Of a DNA stretch of 29,721 nucleotides, positions 1,888 to 29,376 are shown one piece after another. The stretch's first letter is position 1. Each line of letters opens with the position of its first letter. The notes below the pieces were generated by a model that made no database searches, was not told where the DNA came from, and saw only the letters and a program-made list of their open reading frames with translations. Location of the stretch: IMG/VR virus record IMGVR_UViG_3300045988_159010, one strand, 5' to 3'. Position numbers and translations under genes: made by a program. Source of the DNA: a virus.

Positions 1888-1920
1888 TTAATTTTATTCC
1901 TTAATTACTCGATATCCATT

Positions 1921-2121
1921 CTATTCCAATGTTTCTTTTGCAAGAGCTACGGCATCACTGGCTTCAGGACATTCAATACATAAAAAAGTCTTACCATCTA
2001 CTTCATCAATGTAAAATTCATAATTATGACCATTTACCATATGCAATTCTTCACGAAGTTTAGAAGGAATCATTAAACGTCCAACTGTATCAAGTTTTCT
2101 TGTATAAGCTGTTTTCAGCAT
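1921..2121 (-). CDS. AbrB/MazE/SpoVT-family transcriptional regulator (66 aa)
   Basis: The translation MLKTAYTRKLDTVGRLMIPSKLREELHMVNGHNYEFYID shows the characteristic VGRL-IP-xLRE looped-hinge motif of the SpoVT/AbrB swapped-hairpin fold. There is an AAAGGAG RBS and a consensus promoter upstream. The stop codon is TAG, with an in-frame TAA 9 codons further on. Confidence 0.75.
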   Translation of the reverse strand: MLKTAYTRKLDTVGRLMIPSKLREELHMVNGHNYEFYIDEVDGKTFLCIECPEASDAVALAKETLE

Positions 2122-2984: not shown

Positions 2985-3013
2985 TTGACTTTGCAAATTT
3001 TTTGTGTTATAAT
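2985..3013 (+). promoter_or_regulatory. sigma70/sigmaA promoter with extended -10 (TTGACT-N17-TGtTATAAT) driving the rightward early operon
   Basis: TTGACT lies at 2985-2990 and TATAAT at 3008-3013, with a TG at -15/-14. It is divergent from the promoter at 2902-2930. The 29-mer is nearly identical to the promoter at 19406-19434. Confidence 0.65.
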
Positions 3014-3041
3014 TTTTTTAGAAGGATTGGAGGTATTAATC

Positions 3042-4106
3042 TTGATAAAATTAGATTATACTCTTGAAACTCCTGAAGAACGAAATGAATTAGTAAAAAA
3101 AATTTTAGAGGAAAATCCAAATCCTAATGAAAAGTATTTAGAAATCCTCGCAGATTATCTAATTCTATGTATGGAGAAACAAGAAAAAAAAGAAAAGAAA
3201 ATATTAACTGATAATAGATTAATGACAGTTAATAAACGTGAAACTTCTTTCGAAGGTCTTGTTTCCCAGTTAGAGAATGGTGAAGATGGTATATATAATT
3301 TAATTAATAGTGATAAAAATATGATATTTTAGCCAAAAGTTACAATTACAAAAAAAGATTTAGAAGATATTCCGAGCTTAAAACAATTAAAAGACGCTAT
3401 TACAACTTGGGAAGCAAAAATGAAAGTAGTGAGTGGTAAAGATGCTTTCACTATAAAAAAAGCATTAATAGAAATGCGTAAAGACCAATATGTTATTAAA
3501 AATGCTTATCGGAAGCCAATAGTACCAGTAAAGCTTACACGGTCCAAATATAAAATTAAATTAGATGAAGATGTAAAAATATTTGATGATGATGGATATC
3601 CAATTCCAGAAGGCGTCTCATTGATGAACCCTGAAATTTGCTCTTGCATTTTATGCAATTATTCTCGATTAAAAGAAGATAGTTGGGACCGTTTTGAAGA
3701 TGATACTTGGTATCTCATCTATGATTTTGAAAATATTTGTGATGAAGCTTTGGCTGATTATCCTATGTTAATGCGTATTGTAGAATGTAAAATTGATGGA
3801 TTACAAAATATAGAGATTCAAAAAATTTTACAAGAAGAATTTAATATTACCCACAGTTTAGAATATATATCAAGTTTATTCCGCAATAAAATACCAAAAC
3901 TTATTGCCGATAAAGCTGTTGATAAATATTTAGAGTGGTATTATACAACTCAAGAAAAAGGCAAATATAAAAAATGCAGTCGATGTGGGCAAATTAAATT
4001 AGCTCACAATAAATATTTTTCCTATAACAAAACAAGTAAAGATGGATTTTATAGTATATGTAAAAAATGCCGAAATAGTTCTCGTAAAGAAAAAATAAAA
4101 TCCTAA
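3042..4106 (+). CDS. early protein with C-terminal CxxC...CKKC zinc ribbon; one internal in-frame TAG at 3330-3332 (otherwise two genes, 3042-3332 and 3420-4106)
   Basis: A TTG start sits 8 nt after GGAGG at 3029-3033. ORFs 2985-3332 and 3420-4106 share a frame, and the 29 codons between them contain no TAA or TGA. The ATG at 3420 lacks a convincing RBS. The stop is TAA at 4104-4106 with a TGA at 4122. Confidence 0.5.
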
Positions 4107-7099: not shown

Positions 7100-7143
7100 C
7101 TCTTATTATTCTTTTAAATTAATTTTTAAAAGAATAATAAGAG
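7100..7143 (+). terminator. perfect 16-bp AT-rich hairpin (CTCTTATTATTCTTTT / AAAAGAATAATAAGAG, 12-nt loop) just after terL
   Basis: The inverted repeat 7100-7115 / 7128-7143 is perfect. It could be a partial terminator, an RNA-processing site or the boundary of an inserted gene. Confidence 0.45.
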
Positions 7144-7178
7144 GAATTTATTTGTAGATAAGAAAGGAGACTTAATAT

Positions 7179-7535
7179 ATGGATGCCAGTCGTGCGGAAA
7201 TTAAGATTAGAGAAATCTTAGAGGAAGCCGGCCTGAATTTTAAGATGGAATATATATTTCCAGATTTAAAAACACATAATGGTCGTCCTTTACGTTTTGA
7301 TTTTGTCATATTTGATGATGATAATAATATTGATTTTTTAATTGAATATCAAGGGAAATAGCATTATGAAGCTAGTAATAAATTTGGCGGAAAACGTGGA
7401 TTATATCAATAGCAATATAATGATAATCAAAAACGTAGATTCTGTGCTTTACATGATTTACATTTAATAGAAATTCCTTATACAGAAGAAAATTTAATTT
7501 CTTATGATTATATAATGCGAAAAGCTGGATATTAA
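7179..7535 (+). CDS. DUF559/Vsr-like PD-(D/E)xK endonuclease-fold protein (118 aa), possibly a homing-endonuclease-like insert
   Basis: It has an AGAAAGGAG RBS, 2 in-frame TAG and a TAA stop. The motif RFDFVIFDDDNNIDFLIEYQGKQHY...KRRFCALHDLHLIEIPY matches the DUF559 signature (hhDFhh...IEhDGxxH ... R...L...G..hhRh). Confidence 0.5.
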
Positions 7536-10843: not shown

Positions 10844-11620
10844 ATGCTTTTAAAAGATATGCTTAAAGACCTAAGCGGCGTATCTGCTGTTAAGGGCGGC
10901 TACGTTGAATATGGCTATGGTCAGGTTGAGCCTAATCATTTAAGTGCTCAACGCACTGGTCAGATTTATGCTCAATTACCTGCTAACAGAAATATCCAGC
11001 TTCTTGAAAATGGCCAGTTTGTTAAGTATGACTATGCTGCTGGTGAGCTTGGTGAAGTTGATTTCACTGGCAAGGGCGAATGGATGTTAGTTTATAATGA
11101 AATTAAACTTTATCGTGAGGAACAAGCTGATTGCGAATTTGCTATGCGCAAAGATGATTATCAAGCTCGTTATTACAGCCCCTATGATGGCAAGCAGGAA
11201 ATTGGTACACGTCAGGCTCGCTATTTAAATGGTAAGGATGCCGAAGGTAATACTTCTATGACTATTACAGATAGTCAGGGTGTACAACATACTTATGAAT
11301 ATGATGATGTCACTGCTGGTCCTGATATTCGTGAACTCTTCTATGAAGAAGATCCTTTACACTTTGATGGTCCTTATGAGGCCCGTAGAATGCCTGCTGG
11401 CACTAATATGGTTCCTCGTGTTTTCAAGACCAATGTTGGTGATATTTTTACGACTAATACTATTGCCGAAGCTACTCTTGTAGTTGGTGATATTTTAAGT
11501 CCTCGTGCTGCTGATGGTATGCTTTCTAAGACCGGTGATGGCTCTATCCAGTGGTAGGTTGTCAAGGTTTATGAAATGCCTGATCATCAGAAGGGCGTTA
11601 AGATTATGCGAATCGCGTAA
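10844..11620 (+). CDS. head protein (258 aa), TAG-free except one near the C-terminus
   Basis: It has a very strong RBS (TTAAGGAGGAAAACCTAATG) and GC visibly higher than the neighbouring genes. The single TAG at 11555-11557 is followed by 20 more sense codons before the TAA at 11618-11620. Confidence 0.6.
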
Positions 11621-11637: not shown

Positions 11638-12774
11638 ATGTTAGATAGAAAAAATCTTGTTCAATTAATGAAGACTGTCGCTAAGGCTGATCCTTCTACT
11701 CCTACTGCTTACAGCTTTAATGGCGAAAGCCTTTCTTATGATGCTCTTAATGAAACTCTCCGCAGAGAATTAAATGAACTTGCTGGAACTTATTCTTTAT
11801 ATCGTGATAATAAGAACCTTATTTTCTCAATGATTGAGGAAACTATTGATGAAGTTCTTCCTAAGAAAGTTGAAGAGCAATATAATCAGTTTGCTGAAGT
11901 TAAGACGTTTAAACAGGGTGACAAGCCTATTTTCCGTAGAAAGTTCAGCAACAATACTCGTGCAAAGCAATTCATCACTCGTGTCGGCCTAGCTGGTATC
12001 TATGAAGTATTCAAGCTTGGTAAGACTGAAGAATGCTTTGAAGTCCGTACAAGTGCTATCGGCGGAGCTGCTCAAATTGGCTTTGAGGAATTCCTTGATG
12101 GCCGTGTCGATTTTGGTGTTGTTACCCAGATCGTCATGGAAGGTATGGATGACCTTATCTATAAAGAAATTGCCGGTGCTTTAAAGGCTTCTGTTAACCA
12201 GTTACCTCCTGCTAACCGTTTAGTTGCTAATGGTTTTGATGAACCCGGTTTTGATAAGTTACTTATGATTGCTTCTGCTTATGGCACTCCTACTATTTAT
12301 TGCACTTATGAATTTGCTGTTCGTATGATTCCGAAGGATGCTTGGCGTTATACTGAAGCTATGAAGAATGAGCTTTGGAACACTGGCCGTCTTGCTTCCT
12401 ATAAGGGCTATAAAGTTGTTATTCTTGAGCAGGGCTTTGAAGATGCTACCAATGAAAAGAAAGTCATTGACCCAGGTTATGCTTGGATTATTCCTACTGG
12501 TGCTGATAGTAAGCCTGTAAAGGTTGCTATGGAAGGCAATACCATTGTTGATGAATATACCAATTATGATCGTAGCCGTGAAATTCAGGTTTATAAGAAA
12601 GTTGGCGTTATTGCTATGTTAGCTAATAACATCTGCTGCTATTGTGATACTGAACTTCTTGGTGATATGAAGACATGGCATCTTGATGGCGTAACTGGTA
12701 AGGTCCGTGACTATGCTGGTCAAATTACTGGTTCTCATGATACTATTGATGGCGGTAACGAAGATAAGCCGTAA
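11638..12774 (+). CDS. major capsid protein candidate (378 aa)
   Basis: It has a GAAAGGAGAG RBS, no TAG codons, and elevated GC with biased codon use, which is the signature of a highly expressed gene. A strong intrinsic terminator follows, and the gene sits at the canonical position after the scaffold-like genes. The function is inferred from position and expression signals. Confidence 0.5.
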   Translation: MLDRKNLVQLMKTVAKADPSTPTAYSFNGESLSYDALNETLRRELNELAGTYSLYRDNKNLIFSMIEETIDEVLPKKVEEQYNQFAEVKTFKQGDKPIFRRKFSNNTRAKQFITRVGLAGIYEVFKLGKTEECFEVRTSAIGGAAQIGFEEFLDGRVDFGVVTQIVMEGMDDLIYKEIAGALKASVNQLPPANRLVANGFDEPGFDKLLMIASAYGTPTIYCTYEFAVRMIPKDAWRYTEAMKNELWNTGRLASYKGYKVVILEQGFEDATNEKKVIDPGYAWIIPTGADSKPVKVAMEGNTIVDEYTNYDRSREIQVYKKVGVIAMLANNICCYCDTELLGDMKTWHLDGVTGKVRDYAGQITGSHDTIDGGNEDKP

Positions 12775-12872: not shown

Positions 12873-13439
12873 ATGAATAAAAAAGTTTTATTAGTTACTA
12901 ATAGAAGTGCTGGAATGGTCGTTTATACTATTCCTGAAGAAGGCATTCGTAGAGAATTCACACCTGGTGAAACTAAAAAAATTCCTTTTGAGGAATTAGA
13001 GAAGCTTGCTTACCTTAGCGGAGGCCGCACCTTAATGGAAAATTTCTTAAAAATTGTAGATACTCAAACTACAGAAGAATTGGGTATTCATACAGAACCT
13101 GAATATTATTTAGATGATGCTGGAGTTATTAAGCTCCTTACTGAGGGAACTCTTGATGAATTCCTTGATTGTCTTGATTTTGCTCCTATTGGAGTTATTG
13201 ATATGATTAAGAGCTATGCTGTATCTCTTCCTATGAGTGATTATAATAAGCGTAAAGCTCTTAAGGATAAGACTGGATTTGACCTTGATAGAGCATTAGC
13301 TAATAAGGAAGCTGAAGCTGCGGAGGATGAACAGATTACTCCAAAAGCTCCTGAACGTAGAGTGAAGACTGAAACTAAGCCTACAACGCCTCCTGGTCGT
13401 AGAACTGCTCCTCGTTATAATGTTGTAAAAGAAGGTTAA
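12873..13439 (+). CDS. hypothetical structural protein (188 aa), TAG-free
   Basis: Intact ORF with an AAAGGAGAAT RBS. The C-terminus is Pro/Thr/Arg-rich. Confidence 0.65.
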   Translation: MNKKVLLVTNRSAGMVVYTIPEEGIRREFTPGETKKIPFEELEKLAYLSGGRTLMENFLKIVDTQTTEELGIHTEPEYYLDDAGVIKLLTEGTLDEFLDCLDFAPIGVIDMIKSYAVSLPMSDYNKRKALKDKTGFDLDRALANKEAEAAEDEQITPKAPERRVKTETKPTTPPGRRTAPRYNVVKEG

Positions 13440-19405: not shown

Positions 19406-19434
19406 TTGACTTTGGAAATTTTTTTTGTTATAAT
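19406..19434 (+). promoter_or_regulatory. sigma70/sigmaA promoter with extended -10 (TTGACT-N17-TGtTATAAT), a near-duplicate of the one at 2985
   Basis: TTGACT lies at 19406-19411 and TATAAT at 19429-19434. It differs from the 29-mer at 2985-3013 at only 2 positions. Confidence 0.6.
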
Positions 19435-20151: not shown

Positions 20152-23100
20152 ATGGCTAATAACAGTGCTAATTATAATGTTAATATGCGATTTACAGCTG
20201 ATACAGGTCAGGCTAAATAGCAATTACGAGATTTACAAAGTTCATTAGATACTTTAATGAATTAGATAGCAACAAAAAATATTAAATTTTTTGATGTTAA
20301 TGCCACTAAAAAAGAAATAGATGAAGCCTCGGCAGCAGTTTAGGAGTTAAAAATTGCTTTAGATTAGGCGACTAATGTTAATACTGGACGTTTAGATTTA
20401 TCAAAATTTTCAAAGAGTTTAAGTTAGAGTGGCTATACTCTTTAGGATTTTGCTACACATTTAGAGAATCTAGGTCCAACAGGTGATAAAGCATTTGTTG
20501 CGTTAGCATAGTCTGTTATTAATGCTGAAGTTCCTTTAAAAAGAACTAATGCTTTATTAGATAATTTTAAAAAAACATTAGCTAATACAGCCAAATGGCA
20601 AATTTCATCTAATTTAATGCATGGAGTATAGGGTTCTTTATAGAAAGCTTATTATTATGCAAAAGATTTAGATAAATCATTAAACGATATTCGTATAGTT
20701 ACTGGATAGAGTAGCGATCAAATGGCTTAGTTTGCTGAAAAGGCAAATAAGGCTGCTCAAGCATTAAGTACAACTACTACTAATTATACTAATGCTTCTT
20801 TAATTTATTATCAATAGGGTTTAAGTGATAAAGAAGTTGCTGATCGTACTGAAGTTACTATTAAAATGGCGAATGCAGCAGGTGAAAGTGCTTCTAAAGT
20901 ATCCGATTAGTTAACTGCTATTTGGAATAACTTCTATGATGGGAGTAAATCTCTTGAGTATTATGCAGATGTAATGACTAAACTTGGTGCATATACTGCT
21001 TCTAGTACTGATGAAATCTCAGAAGGTGTATAGAAATTCGCATCTGTTGCTAATACTATTGGTCTTAGTTATGAATATGCTACATCTGCATTAGCTACAT
21101 TAACTGCTAAAACACGTGAAAGTGCGAACACAGTAGGTAATAGCCTTAAAACTTTATTCGCTCGTATTTAGGGTTTGACTCTCGGAGAAACTCTTGAAGA
21201 TGGTACTGATTTAAATAAATATTCTAAAGCCCTTGAAAAAGTTGGTATTAGTATTAAAGACCAATAGGGTGAGTTAAAAGATATGAATACTATCCTTGAT
21301 GAAATGATGAATAAGTGGGATAGTTTAAGTCGTGCTGAACAAGTGGCTCTTGCATAGACTGTTGGTGGTGTTCGTCAATATACTCAATTAGTTAATCTTA
21401 TGGAAAATAAAGATTATTTTAAAGAGTTAGTTGGAGTGGCTAAAAATTCTGAAGGTACTTTACAAGAACAAGCTGATATTTATGCTGAAAGTTGGGAAGC
21501 TTCTAAGAAGCGAGTACAAGCTTCTCTGGAAGAAATTTATAAGCAATTAGTTAATGATAAATTTTTTATTGGATTAAATGATACATTAAGTGATACATTA
21601 AATATTACAAGTAAATTAATTGATTCATTAGGTGGATTACCTGGCGTATTAAGTGTCATTTCTACTTTAATGTTAAAGAGTTTCGGTCCTGATATTGTAA
21701 ATAACATGCAGCGTATGGCTTCTAACTTGTTTATTGATAGCGGAGCTGCTGAAAATTAGGCTGCGGTTATGAAAAAAGCGATGATTTAGACATTACAATC
21801 TTTCTCGCCTGAATCTAAAATGGAATTATCAGATTAGGGTTCTGTCACATTAGAAACTACTACAATGATTAATGCAGCTTAGGCATCTTATGATTTATAG
21901 ATAGCTAATAGTCAATTAAATGAAACAGATAAATTAAGACTTTAGACTTTACTAAAAATTTCTTAGGTTTATGGAGATATCGCTGTATAGGCTAAAAGAA
22001 GTATTGAAGTCCAGCAGCAGTAGACTTAGAATAATTTACGAGATGCAAGAAATTAGATTTTTCTTACTACTAATGAAAATTTTGGTGGAGAAACTGGCGT
22101 AAAATATTTTGATAAAAATTATAAAGCTGGACAAAAATTAATTGATAGTTTTTATAATAATAAGGTTTTAAAATAGTTAAATTCTTAGAAATTTGATAAT
22201 AGTGATTCTTATTAGAATTTTTTGGCTAAATTTGATAATATTAAAGGATTAAATACTGATTAGAGATTTGACAAATTAAATCAATTATTAAATAAAGCTA
22301 AAGGAGCTTCTAATAAGCCAAGTAATATTTAGTCTCGATATAGAAATTAGATTATAGAAGAAATAAATAATTTAAAAGATGTTAATGTAGTTTTAGATAA
22401 ATATGTAAACAATAAAGCTAGTGCCGATGGAGCAACTAGAAAATAGATTGAAGCATTACGTCAATGTTTAAATGGGTATGTAAAAGAAAAAGAAGCTTTA
22501 ATACAAAGTAATAATGCCAATAAAAAATATACAGACTCAATAAATGATTTCGAGAAAACTTTGGCAAAAAGTCAAGGAGCCGTTATGACTTTTTCTTAGG
22601 GATTGGTTTCGGGCGCGTAGGGAATCTCTTAGTTGGCTATTGGTATTAATAGTATCCATGGTGCTATATAGGCTTTAAATAGCGAAGATTTAACCTTTGG
22701 TGAAAAAGTATTTTAGATGACTACATCGCTATCTATAGCGATTCCTTCTATTATAAATGGTTTTACTAATTTACAAAAAAGTATATAGAGCATTAATAGT
22801 AGTAAAGGATTAATTGGAACAAATATTTTATAGTTAGTTACTGGGTTAAATGAAATTAAAGAGGCAAATTTAGGCGCTGAATTATAGAAATTAAGTGCAG
22901 CCAGCAATACTTCTGGTTTAAGGTTTAAAGCTTTAAAAGCTATGACTGATGCTTATAATACTAGCATGGAAGGAGCTAAAGTTGGAGCTAATGGATTAAC
23001 TAAAGCTATGGCTGAATAGGCGGCTGGTACTGCAGCTTTAAAGGCTGGTATTAAAGCTGTGGCTGGATCTTTAGGCATTTATATAGCCATCGCTGCGGCG

Positions 23101-26100
23101 ATAGCTGCAATTATTGCAGTTATAGTCCATTTAAATGAAGTAGCAAAAACTAAAACTTTAGAATCTTAGTTAGCTCGTTCTGAAGAGGCTGCTGCAAATT
23201 TTGAAAAACAATTAGAAAAAACAAAATCTAAAGCTGAAGAATTAAAAAATGTTTTTAATAATTATAAAAATATTAAAAAATCTTTAGATGAATGTACTAT
23301 AGGAACAGAAGAATGGCGAAAGAAACTTCAAGAGACTAATGAAACAGCACTAGAAATATTAAAAAATTATCCAGAATTAAAAAATATTGAAGGCGCTTGG
23401 GGTAAAAAAGACACAGGAGAAATTTGGATTGATGAATCGGCGCTAAAGGGTTTACAATCTGAATATGATAATAAAATTTTATCTCAGTCTTATAATTTAG
23501 CTAGACAAAATTAGAATAGTAATGAACTTAAAAATGCTATAGCTTGGAAAAATAATTTTAATGATATAACTTTATCTTATGGAGCTACTTTTAATGATTT
23601 AGAAGGTTCTTATCGTCCTGAAAAAGATGAAAGAACTTTTAATGCTTTAGAATATATTAGAAATAATTTCTAGAATTATAAAGGTTATTCGGATGATTTA
23701 ATTCTTAAGGATATTTACTCTTATTTAAATAAAGAGGGATATAATAATATTGAAGGTTAGGCCTATTAGGAAAAATTAACTTAGTTTATAAATGAAATTA
23801 ATCCTACTTTATAGTCTTTGATTTCTACCATAGAAGAAAATACAGATGCTACTTTGCAAGCGGAGCAAGAAAGTGTTGTCCAATAGAAATTAGGCAAAAC
23901 TAATATGTCTTCTCAAGAAGTTAAATTAACCACAGAAGCTTATAACAATGCCATTGAAGATAAAATAGCTGAAATGAAAAAAGCAACTAGCATTTGGGAT
24001 GGCAAATGGAATGGAACAATAACTTATGATGGACTAGAAATTGGTACTCATGGTGAAAATGCTCGTAACAGCCAATAGGTTAAAGATTTATGGGATGTAT
24101 ATTTAAAATCATAGGGTATTGATATAAATGATAGTGATTATAGACTAAATTAGCAAAATTCTGTAAAAGGTAAAGGACAAGATAGATATTTTGTTTATGG
24201 CCAAGACTAGAAAGTTTCTTTTGAAGAAGTTATTTAGGCAGTTGCTTAGTATGAAGTGGATTAGGGTAATTTCTTAACTGAATTAAATTAGGCAGCTACA
24301 AATTTTTTAACTAATCTTGGAAAAATTCAATACACTGATGAAACTAAGTAGAAAATTGAATCTGGAGGAACTTTAGGAAAAGGTTTAAGCAGTTTTATTG
24401 GTAATAAGGATTTAACTGAATTAACTTAGGAAGAAATAGATAATTTAGGAGAATTAACTGAGGATACTTTAAAAGAGCGTGTAGCTGCTGCTATGGGATT
24501 TGATTATGCTAAAGCTACTAAAGAATAGTTAGCTGAATTAGATGATTAGCTAATAGCTATTTATGGGGCTGTTGGAGTTGATTCCGGAGAAGAATTTGTT
24601 GAATAGTTTAATACAGCTATTATAAATTATGGAAAAGAAACAGAGAAAATTGCTAATTCATTTTATGGTAAATGGGCTACAGCAGAAAATCTAAATTCAT
24701 TTACTTTAGAGGTACAAAAAAAATTAAAATCTACTTTTGTAGATGTTTTTAGAGTAAGTGGAGAAGAAGGAATTGCTGTCTTTAAAGAAATAATATCTAA
24801 ATACGGATCTGATTTAACTCCAGAATTATTAGATTTAATTGGAGATTTTGATTGGACTTAGAGTGGAGCTATTGATAATTTTATATCAGCTTTAGAAGAT
24901 TTAGGTATTTTAACTGATGATAATACTGAAGCCTGGAAAAGATTTTCTAGTCAAATGGCTGAAGCAGCTAATAATTTACCGATAGATAAATTAACTAATT
25001 TACGAGATATTTTAGAAGATATATACAAATTATTAGGTAAAGATGTTGGTTCAATTTTTTCTTAGGAAGATATTGATAAATTAACATTAGGCGGATATGA
25101 TATTGAAGGGCATTATGCTCAAGTTGGTTCAGACGAATATGTTAAAACTAGAGATTATACTACTGAAGAAAAAAATAAAGCTTATGAACAACAAATTCAA
25201 ACTGCTAAGAAAAAAAATGAAATAATTTATGGTGCTAATGATTATAATTAGGCCTAGGTACAATCTAAAGTAGATAGTTGGGGAAAATATGGTGACAAGT
25301 ACATTTCAGGAGAATGGGATAACTTAAGTTCTTCTTATGTAAAGAGTTATATTGACAGCATTGGAGGTATTGAAAATGCTGCTACTATAACTGGATGGGA
25401 TTAGGATAATTTTTCTGATGAATATTTAAATAGTATAACTTCTTAGGAACGTGCTGAAATTGTTGATGCAATAGTAAAGGGAATTAATAGTGTTTATAAT
25501 GGACAAACTGATACTGGTGTTATAACTACTTCTCATTTATATAATAGTTCAGACTCTATAAATGAAATGACTTAGATGGAAGGGTTCCGTGATGAAGAGG
25601 GATCTGTATCAGATTCTGGAATTGAAGCTATTAGTGGAAAATTAGCCGGGTCAGAGGAAGGTTTAGAATTATTACATAAATATTAGGATGAAATAAAAAA
25701 TGTCACTAAAGGTACTGAAGAATGGGATAAAATAACTAATCAATTCATTAAAGATAGTCAAGGTTTAGAATATAAAGAATAGGCAAAAGAATTAGGAAAT
25801 TATAATGATAAATTAAAAGAAGCAAAAAAAGCTGGCGAAGATTATGAAGAAGAACTAGGTAATGTAAGAAAATAGCTCAATAAAATGCTTGATATCGAGG
25901 TAGATGATGATTTCATTGAAGAATATCAAGATTAGATTGATAAAATGCTTAGTGGTAAGACATTAGAAGAACGCCAAAGTGCCGCTAATACAATTAAATT
26001 CTAGGCTGAATTAGATAAAGAAGATATTGAATCTAAAATACCTGATGAACTTTAGAATGAAATTATGCCTATGTTATAGAATAATTTGCCTAAATTAGAA

Positions 26101-29100
26101 CTAGACGCTGAGGGAAAAATTGTAATGACTGGCGATAGTGGCCAAGCTGTAGCTGCCATCGGATAGGTAATAGCAGCTTTATAGGCTGCCGGTGTTCCTG
26201 CTGAAAGTATAGCTGAAATTTTAAGAAGCGTTTTGGGTACTGATATAACTATTAGCGGAGATGGTATAGAATAGTTTGCTGAATTAGCCAAAGCTCTAAC
26301 TTCAGGAGATTTAGAAGCTATTGCCAAGTGGTCTGAAACTTATAATGATGGTAAAGATCTTTTAAATTTAAGTGGTTCTGGCCGTACGGCTAATGTTACT
26401 CCTAATTATGCTTATGAAAATGGTGGTTCTAAAGGCGGCGGAGGCGGTGGAGGTAAATCTACTAAATCTGCTAATGATATTGGCAAAGAAATTCAAGATG
26501 AGAAATTAAAAACTTATGAAAAGAAACGTGAATTATTAGAAGCTAAACGTGATGGAGCTAATCCAGAAGATGCTGCTAAATATATTCAAGAAGAAATTGA
26601 TTTACTTGAAGAAGAACAAGATATTCTTGAAGATTAGATTAAATCTTGGAAAAAGTTATTAAAAGTTAAAGTAGAAGAATTTAATAAAGATCACCCAGAG
26701 TTTGAAATAAAACTTACTGATGATGGTGAAATTGCCAATGCATCTGAATTATGGGGCAAAGTTTGGGCGCAATATCAAAAAAATCTTGAAGATGGTATGA
26801 GTGAAGAAGACCTAAATGAATGGTTTACTAAAATTAAAGACAGTCTTGATGGTCCTATGGGTATTCAATAGAATATTGATGAAAATGTTGCTCTCATTGC
26901 TTAGAAAGAAAAAGAAGCTGCTGAACTTGAACTTGAAGCTATTACAAAATAGATTGACTGGAAAGTTAAGTAGATTGATTTTTAGATTAAACGTCTTAAC
27001 TATTATCAAGAAAAACTTCTTAAATAGGCTCATGGTAATAAATAGACTATTGAAGCAATGCTTGAAGGATTTGCTTACCAAGAGCAAGAAATGCTATAGC
27101 TCTTTGATAAAGGCGCCACATTACGCTAGGGCATTGATTAGTTAAATGCTGCGAAAGCTAAATATCCAGGTTATGAGTAGATGTTTGATGAACAAATACT
27201 TGAATACCAAAGTGATTTAATTGATGTTAATGAGGCTATTCTAGACTTACGTAATGATATTGAAGATTTGGTCTAGAACGTTTTAGATTTGGCACTTGAT
27301 GAAATTGATAAGTAGATAGAACGTCTTGATACTTATACATCAATGCTTGACCATCTTAATAATATTATTGATTTATCTGGTCGTTCAATGCTTGATATGG
27401 GATTAAAAACTTAGATTGGTGCTACTAAAGTAGAAACAATGTTAGGTAAAATGAAATCCTTAAAAGGTCAAATGGATGGTTTAACTAAAGCTACTAAAGA
27501 AGCATAGGCCGCGCTTGCTGATCGTTAGGCTGATGGAGATACATCTTCCGTAAAATTCTGGGAAAACCAAGTTGAAGTATTGAAACAAGAAACTGAAAAA
27601 GCTTCTGATGAATTTTTAGCTTCTTGGGAAGAAACTCTTGAAGCAGCTCAGGATTTATTTGAAATGCGTGTTGAAATGGCAGTTAATATATTAAGTAATG
27701 CTTTATCACCGTTTGAAACTCTTGAAGATTTCCAAGATAAATATGAAAAGGCAAAAACTATTAATGAGCAATACCTTGATGATGCTGACCGTTTATATGA
27801 GTTGAATAAATTAAATCGTTAGCTAAATTTATAGCTAGCTGATGCTAATGACCTTTTAGCTAAACAAAAACTTAGAGACATTTAGCAAGAGATTCACGAT
27901 CTTTAGGCCGATGGCGTCCAGATGAGCCAGTATGACCTTGAATACTTATAGAAAAAATATGATCTACAGCTTGCTGAGATCGCTCTTATGGAGCAGTAGA
28001 ATTCAAAAACTTCAATGCGTTTAGTGCGTGATGCCGCGGGTAATTGGACTTATGCTTATGATGCAGATGAAGAAAAAATTGAAGACGCCACATAGAAATA
28101 TGAAGATGCGGTTCATGAATTAGGTAAGTTAAGTAAGGATTATATTAATGATGTAAGTGAATAGTTAATTTAGAATCAAATTGATTTTAAAGAAGCCTTA
28201 CAAGATCTTGATAAAAACTCTGCGGATTATTCAAATCAGCTATTATCATTGCAAGAGTATTATGTTGAAAGACAAAGATATTTACTTGATGAATTAAATA
28301 AAGGTGTTGTAAATAGTGGATTAACATTCCATGATACTCTCTACGGCCAAATGACTGATTTGTATGATTATAATGATGCTTATATGTTATTTGTTAATAA
28401 TTCTAATACTACAATTAGTGAATTACAAACCAATTATAAAGATTGGCAAAAAGTTGTTGAAGCAGCAATGAACGTTGCTGGTACATCTTGGGAAACTTTC
28501 GGTTCTGATATGGGCGGCACTCTTGATAGTCTTGAAGAACATATTCAAAAATTATGTGATGAAATTGAAGAACTTGTTAATGTATTAATGGGCTATATTT
28601 CTTAGTCTATTGGAATGGTTCTTGATTGGGAATAGAAATATTCTAAGCGAACTGATGAAGAATTAGCTAAAAATGAATAGTATATTGATGGTAACTTTGG
28701 TAGTAGTGGTAGCGGCGGATTAACTTATGATATTGGTGTTGATTATAGTGCTGCTATAATTTCTTTAAGTAAAAATGGTGGTACTTATACAGATGAAAGT
28801 GGCCGTACTTGGACTACTGATGACATCAAAACTTTGAAAGATATCCGTAATTTAAAATTATCTGATATGGAATAGGAAGGTTCATAGATTTTAAAGAATG
28901 GTTCTTCTACTGATTATTGGTCTGAAGAAGAAAAGAAAGAAATTACAACTAATAAAAATGCAGAATGGTTAGATAAAGTTTTAGGAAATGGTGCAGCTTC
29001 TGGTGCCTATACAGGCAATTGGGCTAAAGGACAAGGTTTCGGACCTGATAATGGTAGAATTATTAAAGTTCATCCTAAAGAATTAATTCTTAACCAAAAA

Positions 29101-29376
29101 GATACTTCTAATATACTTCGTGCAGTTGATATTGTTCGTAATATGAATGATTGGGTTGATAAACAAGTACAATCAATGATTAATTTTGGATAGATAAAAT
29201 TAGGTAATTTGATTGATAAAACTACTCCACCTGTTTATGAAACTTAGCCAATTAAGCAAGAAGTTACTATTCAAGCAGACTTCCCAGGAGTTACTGATCA
29301 TTATGAAATTGAAGAAGCATTGTCTAATCTTAGTAATAATGCGGCTCAATATATAAGTGCAAATAAATCTAAATGA
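20152..29376 (+). CDS. tail tape measure protein, TP901-family core (about 3074 aa) with about 115 in-frame TAG codons
   Basis: It has a GAAAGGAG RBS. I read every codon of frame 1 from 20152 and found no TAA/TGA until the TGA at 29374-29376. The region 20700-21760 matches the conserved TP901-type tape measure core (...AEKANKAAQALSTTTTNYTNASLIYY..., ...LTAKTRESANTVGNSLKTLFARI..., ...GELKDMNTILDEMMNKWDSLSRAEQVALA...). There is a hydrophobic transmembrane-like segment (GIYIAIAAAIAAIIAVIVHL, about 23070-23140), extensive coiled-coil repeats and a Gly run (GGSKGGGGGGGK, about 26425). Confidence 0.85.

Follow-up and report, generated by a model that had tools for sequence, protein, structure and literature searches.

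Is a reading frame that is broken by one TAG codon a single gene or two, and does the TAG do anything other than encode an amino acid? Positions 3042-4106 of IMGVR_UViG_3300045988_159010, a stretch of viral DNA of 29,721 nucleotides given as one strand and here called the window, raise both questions. Read directly, the locus opens with a TTG start at 3042, preceded by a GGAGG Shine-Dalgarno sequence at 3029-3033 (8 nt 5′ of the start, and kept in relatives). Ninety-six codons follow, and then an in-frame TAG at 3330-3332. The next 29 codons (3333-3419) contain neither TAA nor TGA, and they lead in an identical frame into a second ORF of 228 amino acids (3420-4106), whose ATG has a weak GGGAAG 5′ of it and which closes on the TAA at 4104-4106. 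The C-terminus of the 3042-4106 product carries the signature CSRC...CKKC.

A preliminary description of this DNA had reported the same frame, the same open linker and the same weak GGGAAG, all of which we confirm. It went on to propose that the cell makes a 96-aa protein while TAG is a stop and a 355-aa protein with a zinc ribbon once TAG is suppressed, and that the locus may be a sensor or effector of a switch in genetic code. The zinc ribbon stands; the long form has 354 amino acids, the 355th codon being the TAA. The proposed switch fares less well. In our assessment it is very probable that in this phage lineage TAG no longer means stop but glutamine (genetic code 15), that the TAG at 3330-3332 is Gln97, and that 3042-4106 is a single gene of 354 residues on the plus strand.

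The gene at 3042-4106 and its product

The most direct way to ask whether the two ORFs belong together is to look at homologs. When glutamine is written at the TAG, the translation matches the PHROG 5767 profile in a single stretch, residues 30-346 against profile positions 76-392 of 393 (E=4.7e-52). With tblastn, contiguous matches were obtained to the Enterococcus phages VRE9_1-4, EF1, EF5 and H1 (residues 2-348, about 40% identity) and to Brevibacillus phage Sundance (residues 3-344, 28% identity), and residues 31-343 were matched in Clostridioides phage phiCD211 (24% identity). The closest record at the protein level is the unannotated MT836163, with 58% identity; at the nucleotide level, 25 kb of the window had no megablast match among GenBank phages. 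An IMG/VR scan confirmed about 150 relatives, of which we examined 80 loci; each is contiguous from residue 1 to about residue 349, at 67-99% identity. There is no split homolog among the cultured phages and these 80 loci. The long form is thus a real conserved protein, and on the evidence of its homologs 3042-4106 is one gene, in which the linker and the second ORF are the remainder of the same protein.

What kind of protein is this? The family carries the label "sigma factor" in PHROG and in the GenBank annotation of the cultured phages. We found no Pfam sigma domain at E<=1, and the NCBIfam model TIGR02937 gave a weak match to one of 14 family members (E=0.0038). A search of the family profile against PDB sequences returned no sigma factor and no solved relative. 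As no sigma region 2 or 4 is recognisable by profile, membership of the sigma-70 family is unestablished, and we refer to the gene as sigma-like for convenience. SigN/ZpdN of pBS32 (PMC6751061) came into consideration as a candidate relative. The N-terminal half of the protein is conserved, the C-terminal domain is helical and HTH-like, and a zinc ribbon of the form CxxC...CxxC (residues 312-343, positions 3975-4070) lies at the terminus. The four cysteines C312, C315, C340 and C343 are invariant, Sundance and phiCD211 included. AlphaFold models reach a pLDDT of 75-77, with a confident helical C-terminal domain and zinc ribbon, and a poorly modelled segment at residues 55-99, which is highly conserved and holds Gln97. 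A Foldseek search with the AlphaFold models found nothing significant; the zinc ribbon gave a local match to Hpy99I (41 columns, 27% identity) and weak PHROG matches to zinc ribbons of the HNH and endonuclease VII type. We therefore describe the product as a member of the PHROG 5767 family and a putative DNA-binding regulator with an HTH-like domain and a zinc ribbon, which presumably acts as a transcription factor.

TAG as a glutamine codon

The reassignment of TAG is evident well beyond this gene. Summed over six frames, ORFs of at least 100 codons amount to 14.7 kb under the standard code and to 36.4 kb when TAG is read as sense. The packaging, head and tail module on the plus strand (4125-29376) is restored by this change, and the ORFs after 4106 can be assigned through PHROG to a PHROG 3314 protein, the large terminase subunit (TerL), a portal, a capsid-like protein, a virion protein and a protein of tape-measure size. 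The gene next after 4106 has 10 in-frame TAGs and TerL has 14. The tape-measure gene (20152-29376) has 3,074 codons from the ATG at 20152, with 115 TAGs that make up 55% of its Gln codons; measured from stop to stop, the ORF is 3,109 codons long with 116 in-frame TAGs. In total the genes downstream of 4106 hold 199 in-frame TAGs against 223 CAA and CAG codons. All genes stop on TAA except the tape-measure gene, which stops on TGA. At the TAG sites of five downstream genes, standard-code relatives have glutamine opposite in 187 of 362 aligned positions (52%), against a background of 3.2%. The TerL protein is 47% identical to that of Geobacillus phage E3, 45% to those of the Enterococcus EF1/VRE9 phages, 42% to that of phAss-1 and 36% to that of Sundance, relationships that point to a large siphovirus-type phage of Bacillota.

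Codon 97 lies in the near-invariant motif I-F-Q-P-K. The two residues directly after the TAG, P98 and K99, are invariant in a 14-sequence alignment that includes Sundance and phiCD211, and F96 and P98 are invariant in 51 unique relatives. At position 97 these 51 sequences have Q in 31 cases, TAG in 18, K in one and R in one. None has TAA or TGA, the two codons which the preliminary description had named as evidence against its own proposal. Among the 42 recoded relatives the codon is TAG in 18, CAA in 22 and CAG in 2; among the nine with the standard code it is CAA in six and CAG, AAA and AGA in one each (Gln in 7/9). TAG or CAA/CAG is therefore found in 49/51, and, judged by this alignment, TAG and CAA/CAG are interchangeable spellings of glutamine in the PHROG 5767 gene.

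Do related phages keep the TAG at this site? They do so in part. Clustering at 90% identity gives 27 lineages, 21 recoded and six with the standard code, and TAG97 is present in eight of the 21 recoded clusters, with CAA or CAG in the other 13. At least one TAG occurs somewhere in the gene in 21/21 recoded lineages, and none in 6/6 standard-code lineages. Across all loci the number of TAGs per gene runs from 0 to 7, at codons such as 9, 16, 20, 76, 93, 97, 115, 149, 217, 255, 260 and 304, and the columns in which TAG is frequent (97, 115, 149, 255 and 260) are columns of invariant Gln. The first TAG may fall anywhere from codon 9 to codon 255, with predicted truncated products of 8 to 254 aa. 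The 96-aa isoform is therefore unconserved, and a gate built on it would lack site specificity. With no conserved short product, the idea of a switch between a 96-aa and a 355-aa isoform is not supported.

One locus stands out in this alignment. L073 has a lone TAG at a Cys column (residue 205 of the window's protein) that is otherwise invariant (50/50 sequences), a misfit with TAG as Gln, due perhaps to a sequencing error, perhaps to a true substitution.

Does the gene differ from its neighbours in how heavily it is recoded? TAG accounts for 0.10 of its Gln codons (1/10), against 0.47 for all downstream genes together. Gene by gene, the late module runs from 0.00 (the capsid-like gene 11638-12774) to 0.61 (TerL), setting aside one 96-codon ORF in which all three Gln-type codons are TAG. 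Over 40 unique recoded relatives the median TAG share is 0.21 in the PHROG 5767 gene and 0.29 in the 8 kb downstream. For the window's clade, one TAG in ten Gln codons is below the binomial expectation from the neighbours' 0.47 (nominal P=0.017). This low count could be a mild avoidance, but the spread between genes is large and the capsid-like genes have no TAGs at all. The gene at 3042-4106 is recoded to about the same degree as its neighbours, with no enrichment and no clear sparing. Here TAG serves generally as a Gln codon, about 200 times in the window, and its usage is not elevated in this gene relative to the late neighbours. A dedicated sensor or isoform role is thus not supported, and the lack of positional conservation in the aligned sequences argues against it.

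Some further observations concern the same module and the same family. There are no TAGs in the capsid-like gene 11638-12774 or in its neighbour 12873-13439, and one in 10844-11620; this scarcity, compared with the tape-measure gene, is what one would see if the most highly expressed genes avoided TAG. Between TerL and a small ORF at 7176-7535 lies an AT-rich perfect hairpin of 19 bp (7100-7143). The small ORF has two TAGs and, from its translation, the look of a putative small nuclease, and the pair could represent a terminator, or else the edge of an inserted mobile element. Within one gene family, at 67-80% protein identity, recoded lineages are found intermingled with standard-code ones (L005-L084). 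For example, the standard-code locus L013 groups at the 80% level with L071, a recoded locus with seven TAGs. Two loci, L055 and L074, are intermediate, with a downstream TAG share of only 6-7%. Such interleaved and intermediate loci look like snapshots of the gain or loss of recoding.

Regulatory context and alternative readings

The gene is preceded by a consensus promoter of the sigma-A/sigma-70 type at 2985-3013, with a TTGACT box, a 17-nt spacer and a TG-extended TATAAT (11/12 consensus positions matched, plus the TG extension). A TTGAC(A/T)-17-TATAAT element followed by a GGAGG ribosome-binding site lies 5′ of the gene in nearly all of the relatives shown, recoded or not. A second copy of this 29-nt promoter-like element is located at 19406-19434 on the plus strand, before the tail-chaperone and tape-measure genes. 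The two copies are nearly identical, with a chance expectation of none, and the pattern TTGACTTTGSAAATTTTTTNTGTTATAAT has exactly these two matches in the window (2985-3013 and 19406-19434) and 0 in 100 shuffles. The A/T-rich spacer motif AAAATTTT recurs across many diverged relatives, which suggests a phage-specific class of promoter.

How, then, would the protein be made? We propose that the gene is transcribed from the sigma-A-type promoter, and that the full-length protein would be made once UAG is read as Gln; the presumed decoder is a suppressor tRNA(CUA) which the phage encodes beyond the window. Should UAG still terminate translation in early infection, the gene would yield a fragment of 96 aa, just as every other recoded gene would yield a fragment, and we see no sign that the 96-aa fragment functions as an isoform. 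ARAGORN, which detects the CTA tRNA of phAss-1, found no tRNA in the whole window, no suppressor tRNA in 27 related loci and no tRNA in about 70 kb (56-126 kb) of the closest relative's 188-kb contig, IMGVR_UViG_3300045988_152007. As neither the window nor that part of the relative contains a suppressor tRNA, we only infer the decoding agent; the timing of expression of the gene is inferred as well.

Upstream, the picture changes. The minus-strand genes of the window at 407-2705 have no TAG, with the exception of a divergent AbrB/SpoVT-like regulator gene (1894-2121, minus strand), which has its own in-frame TAG at 1921-1923. Its product is 66 aa long with TAG as a stop and 75 aa with TAG as Gln. 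After the TAG it continues NGYRVIKE; in the relative L009 a Q encoded by CAA/CAG is followed by NGYKVIKEQD, and standard-code homologs run about 20 residues beyond the point of the TAG. The AbrB-like gene is a conserved neighbour of the sigma-like gene in many relatives. The statement that the TAG at 3330-3332 is the only one in an early module is therefore mistaken on two counts: the AbrB-like gene has a TAG as well, and the gene at 3042-4106 opens the TAG-rich rightward module.

The module that is really free of TAG is found further to the left: on the contig of the nearest relative (L086/L097) about 15 leftward genes have no TAGs. These upstream TAG contents come from direct per-ORF counts, ORF coverage under both codes being too noisy for small genes. 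By motif reading of their translations, the TAG-free leftward genes include putative HAD-like, nucleoside deoxyribosyltransferase, exonuclease and RNA-ligase-like proteins, and the module is presumably an early gene set that is compatible with the standard code.

Several side observations can be made in this region. An HNH homing-endonuclease gene with four in-frame TAGs sits amid the TAG-free leftward module (L086 19846-20469, L097 12127-12759), a parallel to the recoded homing endonuclease that Borges et al. (bioRxiv 10.1101/2021.08.26.457843) pointed out. Positions 1-1600 of the window form an island of high GC content (42-48%, compared with 26-31% for the flanks), which the closest relatives, L005 and L006, share at about 90% identity; the minus-strand ORFs 407-742 and 796-1200 within it have no PHROG match. 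At 1215-1900, about 650-700 bp are without a clean ORF in the frames translated, even with TAG as sense. A search of the window and of the ORF-poor 1150-1950 against Rfam gave only sub-threshold matches, on a bidirectional terminator-like hairpin at 1865-1888. This ORF-poor stretch may represent the remains of a decayed gene, or else an RNA not yet characterised.

Could the TAG nevertheless act as a regulatory amber gate? In such a scheme host RNA polymerase would transcribe the gene from the start of infection, and its TAG or TAGs would block the full-length protein until a suppressor tRNA has accumulated, thus coupling the activation of late genes to the code switch. The consensus promoter with its TG extension, together with the strong ribosome-binding site in nearly all relatives shown, is consistent with early transcription. 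In all 21 recoded lineages the gene has at least one TAG, always 5′ of the C-terminal zinc ribbon, the roughly 15 TAG-free leftward genes of the closest relative fit an early phase under the standard code, and the divergent AbrB-like regulator is TAG-bearing too. A general model, in which in-frame recoded stops delay late genes until suppression is active, has already been published (Borges et al., bioRxiv 10.1101/2021.08.26.457843), and would apply equally to this gene and to its neighbours. A gate particular to this gene runs into the evidence given above. Codon 97 is CAA or CAG in most recoded lineages, and there is no conserved short isoform. TAG is not enriched in the gene, either as a family median or in the window. 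Drift alone would be expected to put one or more TAGs into a gene that has about 13 Gln codons, at a TAG share of 0.2-0.3. The same 29-nt element also precedes the tape-measure operon, so that the promoter gives no early label to the gene at 3042-4106, and the role of the protein as a late-gene activator is itself putative. We consider such a gate unlikely.

A related idea takes the two divergent regulators together. The sigma-like and AbrB-like genes, each TAG-bearing and each with a consensus host-type promoter, stand at the boundary between the TAG-free leftward and the TAG-rich rightward module, and they might form a joint translational checkpoint at which late transcription is licensed only after UAG suppression. 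If this were true, the code switch would be an upstream input to the transcriptional cascade, more than a parallel brake. We rate this proposal as slightly more doubtful still than a gate at the one gene.

A very improbable reading is that the TAG is a true stop, so that a 96-aa protein is followed by a separate 228-aa protein from the ATG at 3420. Standard-code gene calling does give both ORFs, and the weak GGGAAG lies before the ATG. The ATG is best seen as an internal Met127, which is not conserved as a start: among 51 unique relatives residue 127 is Leu in 41 and Met in seven. The 29 intervening codons are residues 98-126, ordinary coding sequence with no intergenic spacer. Their mean protein identity to relatives is 75%, comparable to the remaining gene, their nucleotide differences by codon position (126/101/252) have a third-position excess, and their synonymous fraction is 0.42 compared with 0.48 in the C-terminal part. 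The linker is thus under purifying selection in frame. The swapping of TAG with CAA and CAG at an invariant Gln, the 199 further in-frame TAGs in conserved genes and the want of any split homolog also speak against two genes. The openness of the linker had been given roughly a 10% chance in the preliminary description, an underestimate: 29-codon runs are open in 18% of cases in a mononucleotide shuffle and in 32% of cases over all frames of the real sequence. Open runs of this length are common in this DNA, so the open linker by itself is weak evidence, and it is the homology that carries the proof.

That codon 97 is a nonsense mutation, a mark of a pseudogene or a sequencing error has next to no chance of being right, as only the standard-code stop codon itself speaks for it, and TAG97 recurs in eight clusters at least 10% apart in protein sequence, from independent metagenomes, with purifying selection on both sides of the TAG.

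Comparison with known systems

The nearest cultured counterparts of the gene are the PHROG 5767 genes of the Enterococcus phages VRE9_1-4, EF1, EF5 and H1, of Sundance (gp013) and of phiCD211. The homology extends over nearly the whole length and includes the zinc ribbon, and the gene occupies the same position, upstream of the PhoH, PHROG 3314 and terminase block. Unlike the window, these phages follow the standard code, with no TAG in frame. At residue 97, VRE9_3 has Thr and MT836163 has Lys.

The isoform proposal has its own models. In read-through pairs such as the coat and A1 proteins of Qbeta or gag-pol of MuLV, the stop has a fixed position, both products are needed and read-through is of low efficiency. 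On paper the locus is similar, since one frame would give a short and a long product depending on how a stop is decoded. It differs in that neither the position of the TAG nor the short product is conserved, and in that TAG is a sense codon throughout the genome.

A closer parallel is found in the gut phages that read TAG as Gln, which include crAss-like phages and the Lak, Garnet and Amethyst clades (Borges et al., bioRxiv 10.1101/2021.08.26.457843; Peters et al., PMC9523058). As in these code-15 phages, the TAGs of the window are concentrated in packaging, structural and tail genes, they align with Gln, a neighbouring module is free of TAG, and close relatives use the standard code. Unlike the code-15 crAss-like and Lak phages, the window belongs to a large siphovirus of Bacillota of the SPbeta/EF1/E3-like kind, and decoding is here predicted from sequence, with a presumed suppressor tRNA.

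A good example of a recoded phage on this side of the comparison is phAss-1, with the proposed "Phassvirus" group (Babkin et al. 2023, PMC10607447; OQ749652). This gut phage measures about 136 kb, encodes a tape-measure protein of about 3,150 aa and reads TAG as Gln in 41 ORFs. Enterococcus phage EF1 is among its relatives; to the window phAss-1 is only distantly related, with a TerL that is 42% identical to the window's. A megablast of 25 kb of the window found no nucleotide similarity to phAss-1, and no homolog of the sigma-like gene was detected in the first 30 kb of phAss-1. Whereas phAss-1 has an annotated tRNA-Sup-CTA in an array of 33 tRNAs, the 70 kb surrounding the gene in the window's lineage yielded no tRNA. 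The array of phAss-1 lies tens of kb from its TerL gene.

For annotation, these comparisons have a practical side. The standard code splits the gene into ORFs of 96 aa and 228 aa and shreds the rest of the window, and translation table 15 recovers a conserved 354-aa regulator and, with it, the packaging and structural module in full. Recoding extends to the regulator genes that head the late module just as it does to the genes around them, and no new mechanism emerges. The lineage is abundant in IMG/VR and has close relatives with the standard code. With the window phage, new and uncultured, the phages known to have recoded TAG to glutamine gain a further lineage of large Bacillota gut phages.
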